NCBI RefSeq assembly: GCF_041886205.1
Contig: NZ_CP169029.1
Source: Escherichia coli
GTDB taxonomy: Bacteria; Pseudomonadota; Gammaproteobacteria; Enterobacterales; Enterobacteriaceae
DNA length: 64,000 nt
Direction: 5' to 3' (one strand)
Below the pieces are notes generated by a model. It worked only from the letters and a program-made list of their open reading frames with translations, searched no databases and was not told where the DNA came from. The position numbers were made by a program, and so were the translations under genes. Of the stretch, positions 2,703 through 25,095 are shown in pieces. The first letter of the stretch is position 1. Every line of letters begins with the position of its first letter.

Positions 2703-2975
2703 TTAATGTATTCTGTTTATTTTCTTACCATTGAACATACTTTTATTGTCAGCTGTCGCTGTTCTTCGGTTTAGCCCTCCTGAATCACTATTGCTAAAAT
2801 CACGAATTATGCTGTCGATTAAATCGCGTCGGAAAGCATCTTCCTCAGCCGATTTCATTACGAGTAATTGCTTAATAAGAGTCTGCAATGAAAAATTTAT
2901 CTTCATGCGCAGTATCTGGAGCACCGCCTGGCCAGTAATTTCATATTTTATACGTTCATTATCAGATGTCTTCAT
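2703..2975 (-). CDS. ymgA: YmgA, RcsB-connector family
   Basis: 90-aa ORF; synteny. Confidence 0.75.
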   Translation of the reverse strand: MKTSDNERIKYEITGQAVLQILRMKINFSLQTLIKQLLVMKSAEEDAFRRDLIDSIIRDFSNSDSGGLNRRTATADNKSMFNGKKINRIH

Positions 2976-3017
2976 AACGACTTCATAGCTAACCTGTTAA
3001 ATAATCAGGCTGTTGCA

Positions 3018-3248
3018 TTATTCAAAAAGCAACCCAATTAGTGCATTATAATGTTTCTGTTCCCCTGTCGCTTGTTCCAGTCGGCATAGAAGTTTGGCAC
3101 AAAGCGACTTTCGACTCAGATTACGTCCATCTTTCAAAATCTCAGTCACAATTTCCCCGAGAGTTTCCTGCTGAGTAGGCAAGTTAGCTTTTGCAAAGTA
3201 ACGAGTGATTGCTCCCGCAGAATCTAAAGTCACTGAATTTTGATGCAT
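3018..3248 (-). CDS. ycgZ: YcgZ, first gene of BluR-repressed operon
   Basis: 76-aa ORF beginning MHQNSVTLDSAGAITRYF; divergent from bluF. Confidence 0.8.
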   Translation of the reverse strand: MHQNSVTLDSAGAITRYFAKANLPTQQETLGEIVTEILKDGRNLSRKSLCAKLLCRLEQATGEQKHYNALIGLLFE

Positions 3249-3302
3249 GCTACGCCTCTGTTAAAAATGTTAATCAATGTTAAGTGAGGTAACAATAGCA
3301 AA

Positions 3303-3883: not shown

Positions 3884-4940
3884 GGCTTTGTTGAATAAAT
3901 CGAACTTTTGCTGAGTTGAAGGATCAGATCACGTATCTTCCCGACAACGCAGACCGTTCCGTGGCAAAGCAAAAGTTCAAAATCACCAACTGGCCCACCT
4001 ACAATAAAGCCCTCATCAACCGTGGCTCCATAACTTTCTGGCTGGATGATGAAGCTATTCAGGCCTGGTATGAGTCAGCAACACCTTCTTCACGAGGCAG
4101 ACCTCAGCGCTATTCTGACCTTGCCATCACGACTGTGCTGGTCATTAAACGCGTATTCAGGCTGACCCTGCGCGCTGCGCAGGGCTTTATTGATTCCATT
4201 TTTTCTCTGATGAACGTTCCGCTACGCTGCCCGGATTACAGCTGTGTCAGCAGGCGGGCAAAGTCGGTTAATGTCAGTTTCAAAACGCCCACCCGGGGTG
4301 AAATCGCACACCTGGTAATTGATTCCACCGGGCTGAAGGTCTTCGGTGAAGGCGAGTGGAAAGTCAAAAAGCATGGCCAGGAACGCCGCCGTATCTGGCG
4401 TAAGCTGCATCTCGCCGTTGACAGTAAAACACATGAAATCATCTGCGCTGACCTGTCGCTGAACAACGTTACGGACTCAGAGGCCTTCCCCGGGTTAATC
4501 CGGCAAACCCACCGGAAAATCAGGTCAGCCGCCGCCGATGGCGCTTACGATACCCGGCTATGTCACGATGAACTGCGGCGTAAGAAAATCAGCGCGCTTA
4601 TCCCTCCCCGAAAAGGTGCGGGTTACTGGCCCGGTGAATATGCAGACCGTAACCGTGCAGTGGCTAATCAGCGAATGACCGGGAGTAATGCGCGGTGGAA
4701 ATGGACAACAGATTACAACCGTCGCTCGATAGCGGAAACGGCGATGTACCGGGTAAAACAGCTGTTCGGGGGTTCACTGACGCTGCGTGACTACGATGGT
4801 CAGGTTGCAGAGGCTATGGCCCTGGTACGAGCGCTGAACAAAATGACGAAAGCAGGTATGCCTGAAAGCGTGCGTATTGCCTGAAAACACAACCCGCTAC
4901 GGGGGAGACTTACCCGAAATCTGATTTATTCAACAAAGCC
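3884..4940 (+). mobile_element. IS903-group insertion sequence (IS5 family), 1057 bp, 18-bp terminal inverted repeats GGCTTTGTTGAATAAATC
   Basis: Terminal IRs read at 3884-3901 and 4923-4940 (reverse complement); single transposase ORF; 9-bp TSD. Confidence 0.9.
3961..4884 (+). CDS. IS903-type DDE transposase (307 aa from GTG start; track ORF starts at upstream ATG 3916)
   Basis: Protein VAKQKFKITNWPTYNKALINRGS... recognised as IS903/IS102-like transposase. Confidence 0.85.
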   Translation: MAKQKFKITNWPTYNKALINRGSITFWLDDEAIQAWYESATPSSRGRPQRYSDLAITTVLVIKRVFRLTLRAAQGFIDSIFSLMNVPLRCPDYSCVSRRAKSVNVSFKTPTRGEIAHLVIDSTGLKVFGEGEWKVKKHGQERRRIWRKLHLAVDSKTHEIICADLSLNNVTDSEAFPGLIRQTHRKIRSAAADGAYDTRLCHDELRRKKISALIPPRKGAGYWPGEYADRNRAVANQRMTGSNARWKWTTDYNRRSIAETAMYRVKQLFGGSLTLRDYDGQVAEAMALVRALNKMTKAGMPESVRIA

Positions 4941-4949: not shown

Positions 4950-5961
4950 CCGTATTCGACAAAGGCACATCAAAATTTCAGCTAACTTATGATGACAGAG
5001 CGCTACAATTTTTTCGTACTTTTGTCCTTGCAACCGAACAATCAACCTATTTCGAGATCCCTGCCGAAGATTCCTGGCTTTTTATCGCTGACGGATCTGA
5101 TAAAGAACTTGATTTCTATACCCTTTCACCAAATATAAACGACCGCTTTGCCTTTCATCCAATTGTCGATCCCTTATCGCGGCGGATAATCGCTTTTGAA
5201 GCCATTGTGCAAAAAAATGAAGATAGCCCATCAGCTATAGCGGTTGGGCAGCGTAAAGACGGGGAAATCTACAAAGCGGATCTCAAAAGTAAGGCGCTTG
5301 CATTCGCGATGGCACACGCACTTGAGCTCGGTGATAAAATGATTTCAATCAATCTATTACCTATGACCCTGGTTAACGAACCTGACGCAGTCTCTTTTTT
5401 ACTTAATGAAATAAAGGCCAATGCTCTGGTGCCTGAACAAATCATCGTTGAATTTACTGAAAGTGAAGTCATATCTCGGTTTGATGAGTTTGCCGAAGCG
5501 ATTAAATCGCTAAAGGCTGCTGGTATCAGTGTAGCAATTGATCATTTTGGCGCAGGTTTTGCTGGTTTGTTACTCCTGTCACGCTTCCAGCCTGACAGAA
5601 TTAAAATCAGTCAGGAATTGATTACCAATGTTCATAAAAGTGGGCCACGGCAGGCAATTATTCAGGCGATCATAAAATGCTGTACATCACTTGAAATTCA
5701 AGTCAGTGCTATGGGCGTGGCAACACCAGAAGAGTGGATGTGGCTTGAATCCGCAGGAATTGAGATGTTTCAGGGGGATCTGTTTGCTAAAGCTAAATTG
5801 AATGGTATCCCTTCCATAGCGTGGCCGGAGAAAAAATAATTTTCAGCACATTCTTTCACATGATTTCAGTAAATCATCGTGAAAATGAATACGTTATGTT
5901 TAAATTTAATCCACATTAAAAATAATGTTTCATCCAAATTAGCTGAAATCTTATTTATACT

Positions 5962-5989
5962 TTGTACAATTTTAGCGTATATTGTACAA
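5962..5989. promoter_or_regulatory. Two copies of the self-complementary octamer TTGTACAA spaced 20 bp start-to-start, upstream of bluR
   Basis: Read directly; 55-80 bp upstream of bluR start; position typical of an operator within a promoter. Confidence 0.35.
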
Positions 5990-6043
5990 AGTATTATTGG
6001 GTCGTGTACAGGCGACGGAGATTTATGACCGCAAGGAGGAATT

Positions 6044-6775
6044 GTGGCTTATTACAGCATTGGTGATGTTGCTGAACGTTGCGGGATTAATCCTGTCACT
6101 CTCCGGGCCTGGCAACGCCGCTACGGTTTGTTAAAACCACAGCGCAGTGAAGGCGGACACCGACTCTTTGATGAAGAAGACATACAACGTATCGAAGAGA
6201 TCAAGCGTTGGATAAGTAATGGCGTCCCTGTAGGCAAAGTTAAAGCATTACTGGAAACCACCAGCCAGGATACGGAAGATGACTGGAGCCGCCTGCAAGA
6301 AGAGATGATGTCAATTCTTCGTATGGCTAATCCTGCCAAACTACGCGCAAGAATTATTTCACTGGGTCGAGAGTACCCAGTAGATCAATTGATTAATCAT
6401 GTTTACCTTCCTGTTCGCCAGCGTCTCGTGCTTGATCACAACACCTCCCGCATTATGAGCAGTATGTTTGACGGCGCATTAATTGAATATGCAGCAGCCT
6501 CGCTTTTCGAAATGCGCCGTAAGCCCGGTAAAGAAGCCATTCTGATGGCGTGGAATGTTGAAGAGAGAGCACGATTGTGGCTGGAAGCATGGCGTTTATC
6601 ATTGTCAGGATGGCACATTTCTGTTCTTGCTGATCCCATTGAATCGCCGCGCCCGGAACTGTTCCCGACGCAAACATTGATTGTCTGGACAGGCATGGCA
6701 CCAACAAGAAGGCAAAACGAACTTTTACAACATTGGGGTGAGCAAGGTTATAAAGTCATCTTTCATGCCCCCTAA
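6044..6775 (+). CDS. bluR: MerR-family repressor BluR (YcgE)
   Basis: 243-aa ORF with N-terminal MerR HTH ([27 protein letters not shown]); synteny. Confidence 0.85.
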
Positions 6776-6994
6776 TTTCACCTTTATCCCGCCCCTTAGA
6801 CAGAATGTTATAATCTGAACCCACAACAGCGTTTGTACCGGAGCTGGTCCGTTGCAAAATGCTCACCGGACAATTCAGGTAATCCCCCTTTCACACTTTG
6901 TACATATCACAGCCAAAGGACAGACCAGATTGAAGTGGTAAAACCGATCGTGCACACTACGCAGTCTCACAACTAACAAGAGGTTATTATCCTG

Positions 6995-7399
6995 ATGGAT
7001 CAGGTCGTTGTTTTTCAAAAGATGTTTGAGCAAGTGAGAAAAGAGCAAAACTTCTCCTGGTTTTATTCAGAATTAAAACATCACCGTATTGCACATTACA
7101 TTTATTATCTGGCTACGGATAACATCAGAATTATTACTCACGATGACACGGTTTTGTTATTAAGAGGAACCAGAAACCTGTTAAAAGTTAGTACGACCAA
7201 GAACCCTGCTAAAATAAAAGAGGCCGCATTGCTTCATATTTGCGGAAAATCTACATTTCGGGAATACTGCTCAACACTGGCAGGCGCGGGCGTTTTCCGT
7301 TGGGTTACTGATGTTAATCATAACAAACGCAGTTACTACGCCATTGATAATACGCTTTTATATATTGAAGATGTAGAAAATAATAAACCATTAATCTAG
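6995..7399 (+). CDS. ycgX: YcgX (DUF1398 family) protein
   Basis: 134-aa ORF; synteny. Confidence 0.7.
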   Translation: MDQVVVFQKMFEQVRKEQNFSWFYSELKHHRIAHYIYYLATDNIRIITHDDTVLLLRGTRNLLKVSTTKNPAKIKEAALLHICGKSTFREYCSTLAGAGVFRWVTDVNHNKRSYYAIDNTLLYIEDVENNKPLI

Positions 7400-7605
7400 C
7401 TAAAGTTGGATGCTTAAGAAATGCTTCATAATTCAGTAAGGCATTAGCATAATGGGAATAAAAGTGCAGAGACCATTCCTATGGTTCTAATACTGCCTTT
7501 TTATTGCCGCCCATAGATGTTCAGTACACCAATACTATAAAATTGATATTGAAATGTACTCCCTTGCTTATTGATACATTATTTTATACGGTTAGTTTGC
7601 TTTTA

Positions 7606-7633
7606 AAAACAACGGGCGTGCTATACGCCTGTT
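7606..7633. repeat. Second copy (26/28 identical) of the icd terminator hairpin sequence
   Basis: AAAACAACGGGCGTGCTATACGCCTGTT versus AAAACAACGGGCGTGTTATACGCCCGTT at 8897-8924. Confidence 0.7.
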
Positions 7634-7778
7634 TCATGGCTTAACCCATATTAATTTTGCTTTATTTTTCATCGCGTTATAAGTTTTTAACCAGCAACGA
7701 GTTATCCTTTACTATAAAGTTCAATAGTTGAGACCTTACCCTCATGTCATGCGTATATTCATTATAATGCTCCTTAGA

Positions 7779-7805
7779 CAAAAAAAGCCAACCATGATGG
7801 TTGGC
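7779..7805 (-). terminator. Intrinsic-terminator-like hairpin (GCCAACCAT/ATGGTTGGC) followed by a U7 tract on the minus strand; no annotated minus-strand gene upstream
   Basis: Seen in sequence. Confidence 0.4.
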
Positions 7806-8024
7806 AAAGTGGCACAAAGTAGCATAAAGGCTATGCTTTAATTACAGAAGGTTCAGTCATTTAAATGTATATCGTTTTATCTAAACAGAACTAAAACGAA
7901 GTGAATGATTTCACTTTTCCACTAAATCTCATTTTGTTTAATCTCTGTTGAGATTCCTTGCTTTAAATTTTGTTTTATAAAACAGTAGCTTTATTTTTTA
8001 ATTGATTTTTAGGTAATATAAAAA

Positions 8025-8279
8025 ATGCAAAATCAAGAAATGAATATCCAAATTAAACTATACGCTTATTTAAATAAATATGACACTCGCCTTACAGAAG
8101 AAAAAATTGCGATTGATAAAGCTATTAGAGAATTACATTTTAGCAGCGAGCATGTTGATAACAAAAAAATAATACTGAAGTTACTTTCATTTTTATCATA
8201 TACAGATGATGTTGTTGAAAAAGACATTATCAGAAATACATTGGAAGTGGTTCTTCTTTTTACTTCCGATGATATTTAA
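8025..8279 (+). CDS. AriR/YmgB-family paralogue (84 aa)
   Basis: C-terminal half KIILKLLSFLSYTDDVVEKDIIRNTLEVVLLFTSDDI parallels Ari[39 protein letters not shown] in this same window. Confidence 0.6.
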   Translation: MQNQEMNIQIKLYAYLNKYDTRLTEEKIAIDKAIRELHFSSEHVDNKKIILKLLSFLSYTDDVVEKDIIRNTLEVVLLFTSDDI

Positions 8280-8522
8280 TTGGATTCACTAACTTTATTA
8301 TCAAAATTATTGTCCGAACACTACCTTTCTTACTTATGTTTAATAATAATCACTGCGAATGAGGGGCGCACAACTATATTTTTCTCACACCTGTGATGTA
8401 AAAACACGAGAAAATCCAAATAAAGAACAACATTTGCAATTCCCACCAGATGGATTGCATCACACTTTATTATTCAAAATATTTATCAGCATCATTAAAA
8501 GCCGAAGGATAAGACAAAACAA

Positions 8523-8846
8523 ATGAAGTGGATAGTAATTGACACGGTAATTCAACCTACATGTGGTATATCTTTTTCAGCCATATGGGGTGATATGAAA
8601 ATGATCATCTGGTATCAATCTACTATATTTCTCCCTCCTGGTAGTATATTTAAACCGGTTAAATCTGGTATTATCCTTAAAGATAAAGAATATCCTATTA
8701 CTATTTATAACATCGCACCATTCAACAAGGATTTATGGAGTCTACTCAAAAGCAATCAAGAGTGTCCTCCAGGAGAAAGCAAAATAACAAATAAATGTTT
8801 GCATAATAGTTGCATTATAAAAATATGCCCATATGGGCTCAAGTAA
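8523..8846 (+). CDS. iraM: IraM anti-adaptor protein (RpoS stabiliser)
   Basis: 107-aa [26 protein letters not shown]...; position next to icd. Confidence 0.8.
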
Positions 8847-8896
8847 AGGGTTTAATATAAATATGCTCGATATGCTATTAATAATACCTACATAAA

Positions 8897-8924
8897 TAAA
8901 ACAACGGGCGTGTTATACGCCCGT
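8897..8924 (-). terminator. icd intrinsic terminator (hairpin AACGGGCG...CGCCCGTT followed by a U-rich tract on minus strand)
   Basis: Seen in sequence 25 bp downstream of icd stop. Confidence 0.65.
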
Positions 8925-8948
8925 TGCAATATTAAACACATGTAGTGA

Positions 8949-10199
8949 TTACATGTTCTTGATGATCGCATCACCAAATTCTGAACATTTCAGCAGTTTA
9001 GCGCCTTCCATCAGACGTTCGAAGTCATAGGTTACGGTCTTGGCGTTGATTGCGCCTTCCATACCTTTAACAATCAGGTCTGCGGCTTCAATCCAGCCCA
9101 TGTGGCGCAGCATCATCTCAGCAGAGAGGATGATAGAGCCAGGGTTTACTTTGTCCTGACCGGCATATTTCGGCGCAGTACCGTGGGTGGCTTCAAACAG
9201 GGCGCATTCGTCACCGATGTTTGCGCCAGGGGCGATACCAATACCACCAACCTGCGCTGCCAGGGCGTCAGAAATGTAGTCACCGTTCAGGTTCATACAG
9301 GCGATAACATCATATTCAGCCGGACGCAGCAGGATCTGTTGCAGGAACGCATCAGCGATCACGTCTTTAATGACGATCTCTTTGCCGGTATTCGGGTTTT
9401 TAACTTTCAGCCACGGGCCGCCGTCGATCAGTTCTCCGCCAAACTCTTCACGCGCCAGCTGGTAGCCCCAGTCTTTAAACGCGCCTTCGGTGAACTTCAT
9501 GATGTTGCCTTTGTGCACCAGGGTCACAGAGTCACGATCGTTAGCAATTGCGTATTCGATCGCTGCACGAACCAGACGTTTGGTGCCTTCTTCCGAACAC
9601 GGCTTAATACCGATACCGCAATGTTCCGGGAAGCGAATTTTCTTCACGCCCATCTCTTCACGCAGGAATTTAATCACTTTCTCGGCGTCGGCAGAGTCAG
9701 CTTTCCATTCGATACCCGCATAAATGTCTTCCGAGTTTTCACGGAAGATAACCATATCGGTCAGTTCAGGGTGTTTAACCGGGCTTGGAGTGCCCTGATA
9801 GTAACGTACCGGACGCAGGCAGATGTAGAGATCCAGTTCCTGACGCAGGGCAACGTTGAGAGAACGAATACCGCCACCAACCGGAGTGGTCAGCGGGCCT
9901 TTAATGGCAACGCGATATTCACGAATCAGATCAAGGGTTTCAGCAGGCAGCCAGACATCCTGACCATAAACCTGTGTGGATTTTTCACCGGTGTAAATTT
10001 CCATCCAGGAGATTTTACGCTCGCCTTTATAGGCTTTCTCGACTGCAGCGTCGACCACTTTCAGCATGGCTGGGGTTACATCTACACCGATTCCATCACC
10101 TTCAATGTAAGGGATAATCGGATTTTCAGGAACGTTGAGTTTGCCGTTTTGCAGGGTGATCTTCTTGCCTTGTGCCGGAACAACTACTTTACTTTCCAT
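8949..10199 (-). CDS. icd: Isocitrate dehydrogenase (NADP), native C-terminus with no e14 junction
   Basis: 416-aa [41 protein letters not shown]... Confidence 0.97.
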
Positions 10200-10659
10200 T
10201 CACCTCTCCTTCGAGCGCTACTGGTTTGCTCGTCTGCCACCACGTTGCATATGCGTTTGCGTCCTGCGATACGGATGCTTTAGAGCAATTTTTGTTAATG
10301 ATTTGTAATTGGCTTGTCAATACTACCCTATTGTTTGCCGTCATGAAAGATGCGCGTTATTAGGCTATAATGCGGCAATTCATAATCTGTGAAAATACCA
10401 TGCAAAAAACTTCTTTTAGACCAAAGACAGTATTTTTCAGACCTTCAAATAAGGTATTAAATATCAATAATTTACACCAGATTTTAAGCAATAAAAAAAA
10501 CCACCAGAGATAACTAACAGGGTGCTATTTGGTCAAAATTTGACATTACTCGATTCAGCGACTAACTCACTTTGAGCACTATTGGGAAAATTATCAAAAG
10601 TCATGGTTGAAGCGACAAGCAACGAGTAAATTATGGCATCCACCCTTTTTGAGGTTCAC

Positions 10660-10752
10660 ATGAAACGCTTTGCACTGATAGCTGTGACACTCGTTGCCTT
10701 TACTGGTTCTAGTTCTGCATCTGCTGCAACCGAAGAAATCAACTTCAAGTAA
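10660..10752 (+). other. 30-codon mini-ORF encoding a signal-peptide-like sequence (MKRFALIAVTLVAFTGSSSASAATEEINFK), in frame with the downstream 149-aa ORF but separated by TAA and TGA stops
   Basis: GAGG 5 nt upstream of ATG; frame relationship counted from coordinates (10786-10660 = 126). Confidence 0.4.
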
Positions 10753-10785
10753 CAGAAACACTATATAACAATGAAGTGTTGAAAA

Positions 10786-11235
10786 ATGGATACTACCGAA
10801 GAACGCAATGGAACATATTTCTACAGAGGACACCCGAACCTGTCCAAAATAGAACTACTCAACGTCATATTCCTTGAAGAATTCTGTAAGGAATTGGGGA
10901 TTGATTCGGTATCAGGTGCAGCAATCTTATCTGGTCAACCTTGGCTGGGTACAAGAGCGAAGCCGCAAGGGGCAACCCTGGGAACAAGTGTTGTCTCAAA
11001 GTATGCGCGTATACTGATGAGAGATGCACGCATGCCTTTTGGTATTTCTGTTCATACACCAGTGGGGGTAAGGATGCAGAAATCTAATAAGCTTGCTGCA
11101 ATTATCGCTCGTTGGGTCCCGTGGATTGGTTGGGCTTCACTGTCGATGAGTCTTTACAGGGTTTCGACTCGTACCCAGGAAAAATACAATCTGATTGCCA
11201 AACCTCAAGACCGTATTAAGTGGACTTCCTTCTAA
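10786..11235 (+). CDS. Hypothetical protein (149 aa), hydrophobic C-terminal segment; possible remnant of a secreted protein or toxin
   Basis: Track ORF; no convincing RBS of its own; stop overlaps start of next ORF (TAATG). Confidence 0.45.
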   Translation: MDTTEERNGTYFYRGHPNLSKIELLNVIFLEEFCKELGIDSVSGAAILSGQPWLGTRAKPQGATLGTSVVSKYARILMRDARMPFGISVHTPVGVRMQKSNKLAAIIARWVPWIGWASLSMSLYRVSTRTQEKYNLIAKPQDRIKWTSF

Positions 11236-16313: not shown

Positions 16314-16331
16314 TGGTTTATTTAATGTTTA
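16314..16331 (+). promoter_or_regulatory. PhoP box direct repeat (TGGTTTA-TTTAA-TGTTTA) in phoPQ promoter
   Basis: Matches (T/G)GTTTA-N5-(T/G)GTTTA consensus; about 60 bp upstream of phoP. Confidence 0.7.
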
Positions 16332-16391
16332 CCCCCATAACCACATAATCGCGTTACACTATTTTAATAATTAAGACAGGGAGAAATAAAA

Positions 16392-17063
16392 ATGCGCGTA
16401 CTGGTTGTTGAAGACAATGCGTTGTTACGTCACCACCTTAAAGTTCAGATTCAGGATGCTGGTCATCAGGTCGATGACGCAGAAGATGCCAAAGAAGCCG
16501 ATTATTATCTCAATGAACATATACCGGATATTGCGATTGTCGATCTCGGATTGCCAGACGAGGACGGTCTGTCACTGATTCGCCGCTGGCGTAGCAACGA
16601 TGTTTCACTGCCGATTCTGGTATTAACCGCCCGTGAAAGCTGGCAGGACAAAGTCGAAGTATTAAGTGCCGGTGCTGATGATTATGTGACTAAACCGTTT
16701 CATATTGAAGAGGTGATGGCGCGAATGCAGGCATTAATGCGGCGTAATAGCGGTCTGGCTTCACAGGTCATTTCGCTCCCCCCGTTTCAGGTTGATCTCT
16801 CTCGCCGTGAATTATCTATTAATGACGAAGTGATCAAACTGACCGCGTTCGAATACACCATTATGGAAACGTTGATACGCAATAATGGCAAAGTGGTGAG
16901 CAAAGATTCGTTAATGCTACAACTCTATCCGGATGCGGAGCTGCGGGAAAGCCATACCATTGATGTACTGATGGGACGTCTGCGCAAAAAAATTCAGGCA
17001 CAATATCCGCAAGAAGTGATTACCACCGTTCGCGGCCAGGGCTATCTGTTCGAATTGCGCTGA
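16392..17063 (+). CDS. phoP: Response regulator PhoP
   Basis: 223-aa [19 protein letters not shown]... Confidence 0.97.
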
Positions 17064-25063: not shown

Positions 25064-25095
25064 AGCGGGCGGTGGTATTACCGCCCGTTTTTTAT
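25064..25095 (+). terminator. potD intrinsic terminator (GGGCGGT...ACCGCCC followed by T7)
   Basis: Seen in sequence. Confidence 0.7.

Follow-up and report, generated by a model that had tools for sequence, protein, structure and literature searches.

A conserved hairpin and U-run on the minus strand beside iraM in Escherichia coli, and a candidate small RNA that it may terminate

Canonical Rho-independent terminators of E. coli consist of a G+C-rich stem of ~5-14 bp with a short loop, followed directly by a U-tract. Among small RNAs (sRNAs) activated by PhoP, the closest described cases are MgrR in E. coli and PinT in Salmonella, the latter encoded on horizontally acquired DNA. The locus reported here lies in a 64-kb window of E. 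coli DNA (the whole stretch that was analyzed), to which all coordinates refer unless K-12 is named. A minus-strand hairpin in this window shares with canonical terminators a G+C-rich 8-bp stem, a tight loop, a U7 tract that follows immediately, and the restriction to one direction. Unlike them, it is a predicted terminator, and the minus strand upstream of it carries neither an annotated gene nor a known RNA. The RNA that it may close resembles MgrR and PinT in prediction only, as an ~80-100-nt RNA with a PhoP box in place of the −35 element and a U-rich stretch plus a terminator with a long U tail; as with PinT, it would be encoded on acquired DNA. It differs from both in having no sequence or Rfam similarity to them, in a PhoP box that matches the consensus at only 10 of 12 positions, and in its distribution: just ~0.5% of sequenced E. 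coli carry the element, and the K-12 copy is decayed.

The region is 100% identical to E. coli strain 6EVA. The gene order is bluF, bluR, ycgX, a 625-nt spacer, an AriR/YmgB-family gene (here the AriR-like gene), iraM, and icd. According to the literature, IraM acts under Mg2+ starvation. The main features are the following.

6995-7399, plus strand: ycgX
7805..7787, minus strand: predicted terminator stem-loop GCCAACCA-UCA-UGGUUGGC, 8 bp with 5 G-C pairs and a 3-nt loop
7786..7780, minus strand: U7 tract directly 3' of the stem, read from the sequence
8025-8279, plus strand: AriR/YmgB-family gene, 84 aa, in every hairpin-intact haplotype and deleted in the K-12 type
8523-8846, plus strand: iraM, encoding an anti-adaptor with the PmrD fold
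8949-10199, minus strand: icd, with its own terminator at 8927..8901

The original prediction, that a minus-strand hairpin is followed by UUUUUUU while ycgX, the AriR-like gene, and iraM are all on the plus strand and icd has its own terminator, was borne out in each of these respects. The plus-strand letters are AAAAAAA at 7780-7786, GCCAACCA at 7787-7794, TGA at 7795-7797, and TGGTTGGC at 7798-7805, and a terminator consensus scan also lists the hairpin (8 pairs, 5 G-C, loop of 3, tail TTTTTTTG). The structure had been drawn with a 9-bp stem and a 1-nt loop; the palindrome is the same, but 8 bp with a 3-nt loop is its physically sensible form. In a 49-nt context the folding energy is −12.6 kcal/mol. 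The hairpin and the stem-loop of the candidate RNA fold equally well on the plus strand. On that strand the sequence 3' of the hairpin reads AAAGUGGC and contains no U-run, so the terminator signature is one-directional and confined to the minus strand.

Strict terminator criteria were applied to both strands of the window: a perfect 8-bp stem, at least 5 G-C pairs, a loop of 3-8 nt, and at least 7 T in the next 8 positions. Two sites were returned, the present one (7787-7805, minus strand) and a second intrinsic terminator at 25066-25087 on the plus strand, which consists of CGGGCGGTGGTATTACCGCCCG plus a T-run. No site was found in 100 dinucleotide shuffles of the whole window or in 3,000 shuffles of 7400-8950, which rules out a chance palindrome. 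The site is present at a median of one and a maximum of two copies per genome; being single-copy, it is not a repeat element of the REP or MITE kind. We are highly confident that the hairpin and U-run are real, non-random, and selectively maintained as a structure. They probably act as a minus-strand intrinsic terminator.

The distribution of the hairpin among the complete E. coli genomes was as follows.

Window-like haplotype, 10 of 5,426 genomes: hairpin intact
L012/L016-type haplotype, more divergent, 19 of 5,426: hairpin intact
K-12-type haplotype, ~3,780 of 5,426: hairpin broken
No match to the hairpin segment, empty-site genomes included, ~1,640 of 5,426: hairpin absent

An intact hairpin is thus carried by ~30 of the 5,426 genomes (~0.5%), all of which keep the AriR-like gene; a further hairpin-intact variant, L025, was found in a read-archive assembly. 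Strains with the intact allele include 6EVA (NZ_CP138428), LHM10-1 (NZ_CP037903), and, for the L016 type, MFDS1022581 (NZ_CP169399). All lineages belong to E. coli proper, since bluR is 98-99% identical across them. Between the window and L012/L016, identity is ~88% for ycgX, ~80% for iraM, ~81% for the AriR-like gene, and 72-79% for the flanking non-coding DNA, compared with 93-95% for a 42-nt block containing the hairpin. The possibility that the divergent iraM alleles represent iraL was ruled out, IraL being 59% identical and located elsewhere. Both terminator stems are invariant in the window-like, L012, L016, and L025 haplotypes, and changes occur only in the loop, as a substitution in L012 and L025 and as a 1-nt deletion in L016 (giving a 7-bp stem and a tetraloop). 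These loop variants keep the fold at −12.9 to −13.9 kcal/mol. The U-run is U7 in the window, U6 in L012, L016, L025, and MB53, and U5 in the K-12 type. The K-12 counterpart of the hairpin stretch reads AAAAAGGCAACCATAATGTTTAGC and folds at −2.6 kcal/mol versus −12.6 kcal/mol in the window.

A covariation test over the haplotypes found none; there is conservation only, over about four independent haplotypes. In the window-like strain XJ5.2, a C-to-T change produces a C.A mismatch on the minus-strand RNA and a G.U pair on the plus strand, and this mismatch counts against the minus-strand RNA reading. In L025, homology to all other haplotypes stops exactly at the U-run, which makes the terminator the edge of the conserved unit. 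To the left of the U-run, positions 1-70 of L025 are unrelated to all other haplotypes, and a 140-nt query over this flank has many matches in E. coli plasmids; the flank is possibly mobile-element sequence, or the end of such an element, inserted exactly at the U-run. A scan of genome contigs for outgroup species with a conserved 20-mer returned only a contaminant contig. Of two metagenome scans, one gave no matches and the other recovered one contig that matches the window exactly, along with two chance matches. The stems are kept while the plus-strand open reading frame (ORF) and the spacing of the arms vary; the conserved object is therefore an RNA hairpin with a T/U-run, as in a minus-strand terminator.

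The DNA upstream of the hairpin on the minus strand was searched for promoter patterns. In PhoP-activated promoters the box, with the consensus (T/G)GTTTA-N5-(T/G)GTTTA (as cited in PMC8355897), replaces the −35 element at a fixed distance from the −10 element, and this arrangement is found on the minus strand of the spacer. The relevant elements are listed below.

7898..7882, minus strand: PhoP-box-like direct repeat CGTTTT-AGTTC-TGTTTA, 10/12 to consensus
7869..7864, minus strand: −10-like hexamer TACATT (TATATT in L012, L016, and L025)
7935..7969, plus strand: divergent PhoP-type promoter of the AriR-like gene and iraM, TGTTTA-ATCTC-TGTTGA, 12 nt, TAAATT, conserved
16315-16349, plus strand: phoP promoter, with the perfect PhoP box GGTTTATTTAATGTTTA, 12 nt, CATAAT, upstream of phoP (16392-17063) and phoQ

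The gap between box and −10 hexamer is exactly 12 nt at the minus-strand site, as it is in the phoP promoter and in the iraM-side promoter. Every haplotype, K-12 included, has the box and the −10 hexamer with this 12-nt gap between them; L020 and L021 carry CGTTAT in the PhoP-like box. A composite scan (box at least 10/12, gap 11-13 nt, −10 at least 4/6 with A2 and T6) over 128 kb of strand gave three matches, at 16315(+), 7935(+), and 7898(−), where 0.6 was expected, the phoP promoter match serving as the positive control. The chance of a minus-strand composite match within 7806-8024 is ~0.012. The predicted minus-strand promoter lies ~77 nt upstream of the U-run. Two considerations temper this result. 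The 10/12 box, whose upstream half-site is the weaker one, could instead serve the iraM-side promoter as an upstream PhoP site in reverse orientation. Moreover, once a box is present, finding a −10-like hexamer at the right distance from it in AT-rich DNA is not very unlikely.

Promoter and terminator would delimit a short RNA with the following parts.

7857..7858, minus strand: start of transcription predicted from the sequence, 6-7 nt downstream of the −10 hexamer
7837..7821, minus strand: internal 6-bp stem-loop AGCAUA-GCCUU-UAUGCU, the stem invariant in intact haplotypes and the loop variable
7820..7806, minus strand: U-rich single-stranded linker ACUUUGUGCCACUUU, in which UUUGUGCCA is invariant in all haplotypes, K-12 included

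The predicted RNA is 78 nt long in the window and 75-76 nt in the other haplotypes, and has a two-hairpin fold common to the haplotypes, with a minimum free energy of −17.9 kcal/mol (z = −2.6). Its 5' third is poorly conserved. The linker is conserved, and together with the hairpin and U7 it has the U-rich and terminator features of Hfq-type RNAs at the sequence level. K-12-type alleles have mismatches in both RNA stems, that of the terminator and the internal 6-bp stem, as would be expected for a decayed RNA gene. A search with Rfam covariance models over 5000-11000, with E values up to 10, returned nothing overlapping 7700-8000. Within the window, a scan for trans-encoded targets gave no significant result; the best duplex was no better than those of shuffled seeds, 6% of which were as good.

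The reading that we prefer, with a probability of roughly 0.4, is that the terminator ends a candidate sRNA of ~78 nt made from a PhoP-type promoter divergent from that of the AriR-like gene and iraM. The hairpin and U-run would be a working Rho-independent terminator at the end of a small gene for a non-coding RNA of ~75-78 nt. An activator-dependent promoter (box 7898..7882, 12 nt, −10 hexamer 7869..7864), firing divergently from the PhoP-type promoter on the iraM side, would initiate the RNA near 7857. The RNA would comprise a variable 5' stretch, the 6-bp stem-loop, the U-rich linker, and the terminator with its U6-7 tail, which is the architecture of an Hfq-type sRNA, and would be fully antisense to the ymgK region. 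A minus-strand transcript of about 50-250 nt starting between 7830 and 8020 had been proposed before; this is plausible, and the predicted start at ~7857, given by the promoter pattern, falls inside the range. The only minus-strand ORF then pointed out, nine ATG-initiated codons without a Shine-Dalgarno sequence, does exist (7860..7831, MTEPSVIKA and a stop). As an alternative gene product, this micro-ORF was rejected: its ATG coincides with the predicted start site, a Shine-Dalgarno sequence is lacking, and L012, L016, and L025, three haplotypes that keep the terminator, do not have the ORF.

Published expression data for the locus come from K-12, which carries the broken allele. Term-seq in standard media (Adams 2021, PMC7815308) lists no 3' ends at K-12 1,211,900-1,212,699, and no transcription start on the equivalent of the minus strand is reported by Romero 2014, again for the broken K-12 allele in standard media. 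The ROSE and EDL933 supplementary data hold no entries for the locus. Term-seq at this position had been put forward as a check; there are indeed no 3' ends at the orthologous K-12 position, but because the hairpin is degraded in K-12 and in most E. coli, K-12 Term-seq cannot refute the terminator. A Rho-termination region is called at K-12 1212310(+) with a score of 2.57 and p = 9e-5 (Adams 2021, PMC7815308), a call made at low coverage with ±800-nt windows and hence of low resolution. The called position falls within the decayed hairpin of K-12, shortly ahead of the U5 run, and is 66 nt downstream of the start predicted for K-12 (1,212,244). This shows that transcription of the terminator strand occurs in K-12 and that Rho limits it at about this place. 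The signal fits a promoter that has survived the loss of its intrinsic terminator, and it is likewise compatible with pervasive antisense transcription.

Rho-limited transcription on the terminator strand would also be expected if a working terminator served as an insulator, stopping longer pervasive or antisense minus-strand transcripts before they reach ycgX and bluR. Such transcripts could come from an antisense promoter at the 3' end of iraM, from spurious promoters in the AT-rich islet that carries iraM, or from icd read-through. A minus-strand sigma70-like site, TTGAGC-17-TATAAT, is present at the iraM 3' end (8842..8814) and is positionally matched in L016 (3829..3801), and the window has further sites of this type at 8402..8373 and 8164..8137. 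H-NS binds the AT-rich spacer, and spurious transcription is common in such DNA; a second terminator-like copy (7629..7615) follows 150 nt further on. However, the promoter-like sites in and beside the AriR-like gene do not keep their positions from one haplotype to another; the only one that recurs, at the iraM 3' end, is more than 1 kb upstream. Transcripts from there or from icd would have to cross at least 1 kb of untranslated RNA, where Rho normally acts first, and the terminator of icd itself is already strong (−27 kcal/mol in context). Insulation also leaves unexplained why an internal stem-loop, a linker, and a promoter-like unit are conserved at a fixed 75-78 nt. We regard it as unlikely, while noting that it shares the working terminator with the candidate sRNA gene.

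The genomic setting of the hairpin was reconstructed from two diverged copies of the icd terminator.

7606-~7655: distal icd terminator copy, forming the left direct repeat of the iraM islet
8898-~8947: proximal copy, the working terminator of icd, right direct repeat

The repeat of ~50 bp comprises the icd terminator together with the ~20 nt that precede it, with 23 of 24 core positions identical (E = 3e-5). The terminator is strong in context, and the distal copy also contains a terminator-like hairpin on the minus strand, that at 7629..7615. In empty-site genomes (for example Rb-3 and Z0117EC0013), there is one repeat copy, ycgX-ymgL adjoins the icd 3' end, and ymgK, the hairpin, the AriR-like gene, and iraM are missing; the single copy lies at ~2711-2760 in L009 and L010. 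Two copies here and one in the empty-site genomes define ~7656-8897 (~1.24 kb) as an insertion with att-like flanks, and this comparison of sequences shows that iraM arrived through insertion into the icd terminator. As with the e14-type prophage at icd in K-12, the iraM segment is bracketed by a duplicated icd 3' end and terminator, and empty-site genomes exist. Unlike e14, the islet is only ~1.24 kb and has no integrase, and its repeat of ~50-63 bp covers the terminator, whereas that of e14 is 165 bp of coding sequence.

Several further rearrangements were observed around the repeats. In strain Nord58 (L011), IS200C copies at 2820-3278 and 4399-4857 adjoin both repeat copies, which suggests that the icd-terminator hairpin is a target of IS200. 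In L012 and L016 (3834-6025), a trkH-family gene instead of icd follows iraM, that is, a further insertion lies between iraM and icd. The L016 type has ~430 extra nt after the distal repeat that are icd-like for only ~62 nt; a longer duplication of an icd fragment is unsupported beyond this. A weak Rfam tpke11 match at 8874-8944 on the minus strand (26 bits versus a gathering score of 43) covers the icd terminator and most likely reflects just a terminator-like structure.

Of the AriR-like gene, only the first ~25 nt (ATGCAAAATCAAGAAATAAACATCC) are left in K-12, where the iraM leader comes next (window ~8010-8500 compared with L002 ~3140-3200). The common K-12 arrangement is accordingly a derivative with a ~480-bp deletion, and by this comparison the window arrangement is the older one. 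The deletion puts iraM directly behind the PhoP-type promoter. The spacer (7400-8024) is 78-88% identical to that of K-12, and the genes on either side are more similar (ycgX 99%, iraM 97%); this contrast suggests a mosaic or recombinant history of the non-coding segment.

The candidate RNA would form the left edge of the islet, followed by the AriR-like gene and iraM. The hairpin, ~130-150 nt inside the left end, is also placed where a terminal cargo gene reading toward the junction would stop, as the layout of mcrA in the e14 element of K-12 illustrates. It could thus be a relic, the last-gene terminator of an ancestral integrative element that brought iraM, now functionless and kept because the haplotypes are young or by chance. 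No minus-strand gene is left for it to serve, and it has decayed in the commonest haplotype, both of which suit a relic. Yet a neutral relic is expected to decay as it has in the K-12 type, and in the intact haplotypes the hairpin is invariant, with changes confined to the loop, amid non-coding DNA that has diverged by 21-28%. We consider this explanation improbable.

The plus strand opposite the hairpin carries an ORF.

7794-7841, plus strand: ymgK-homologous ORF MMVGKVAQSSIKAML, 15 codons, with its start codons (7794 and 7797) inside the hairpin

In K-12-type genomes, RefSeq annotates the plus-strand small-protein genes ymgL and ymgK in the orthologous spacer, and both proteins have been detected by chromosomal epitope tagging (VanOrsdel 2018, PMC6001520). 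The window ORF resembles K-12 ymgK, which encodes a 14-aa small protein (PMC6001520), in its orthologous position and in being a homologous 15-codon ORF that starts in the hairpin. It lies opposite the terminator strand and is not preceded by AAGG, whereas K-12 has the ORF and no hairpin. Among the intact haplotypes, its length is 15 aa in the window, 29 aa in L012 and L025 (stop lost), and 10 aa in L016 (frameshift), and a Shine-Dalgarno sequence is absent in all of them; 14 aa with AAGG is found only in the K-12 type. A conserved YmgK protein was therefore rejected as the explanation, the ORF being unconserved and without a ribosome-binding site in intact haplotypes. The 1-nt loop deletion in L016, which shifts the frame and changes the spacing of the arms, argues against either a peptide or a protein-binding palindrome as the conserved object. 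The ymgL gene is disrupted in the window (7452-7490) by a 2-bp deletion, and MGIKVQRPFLWF followed by a stop replaces the 36-aa K-12 protein.

A constitutive sigma70 promoter, TTCATA-17-CATAAT, has been reported in the ycgX-iraM spacer (Shimada 2014, PMC3946193) and corresponds to 7425-7453 on the plus strand of the window. It lies within the ~55 nt right after the ycgX stop, which are almost invariant. A transcript from this promoter would contain the hairpin as plus-strand RNA, where it could control the start of the ymgK-like ORF or stabilize or process the mRNA. The start codons inside the stem-loop, the equally good plus-strand fold, and the XJ5.2 change, which is G.U-compatible only on this strand, are in keeping with such a role, as is the translation of YmgK in K-12, which has an open hairpin and an upstream AAGG. 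But with an ORF that loses its stop, shifts frame, and has no Shine-Dalgarno sequence in the intact haplotypes, there is nothing consistent to regulate, and the conserved A/T-run would have no role; a plus-strand function is very improbable. A DNA operator bound by a dimer that regulates the divergent promoter region, suggested by the perfect and conserved 19-bp palindrome ~130 bp upstream of the iraM-side PhoP box, can be nearly dismissed, because the L016-type deletion alters half-site spacing in a way that a hairpin tolerates and a dimer operator usually does not, no known motif was recognized, and conservation of the adjacent T-run is unexplained.

For the candidate sRNA, the most far-reaching version is tentative and somewhat doubtful: an unrecognized PhoP-activated, Hfq-type sRNA, divergent from an AriR-like/iraM operon and belonging to an ancestral module of Mg2+ stress and RpoS stabilization, inactivated in K-12 and most E. 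coli together with the deletion of the AriR-like gene, its antisense strand being co-opted for the 14-aa YmgK. In the K-12 type, both RNA stems would have decayed while ymgK gained the Shine-Dalgarno-like AAGG and came to be translated. The overlap of the YmgK start with the hairpin, the decay of the hairpin in K-12, and the islet in the icd terminator were absent from the original prediction. The broken K-12 allele explains why studies in K-12 would have missed the element, and the origin of YmgK is tied to a decayed antisense element.

The stakes are modest either way, with one locus in ~0.5% of sequenced E. coli. Should the RNA be real, the ancestral PhoP/IraM/RpoS stress circuit includes an additional RNA and a partner gene of the AriR family, neither of them visible in K-12, since its lineage lost both, and the locus would be a clean natural case of sRNA gene decay in which the opposite strand yields a translated micro-protein. 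If the RNA is not real, the site is still a selectively maintained orphan terminator on acquired DNA.
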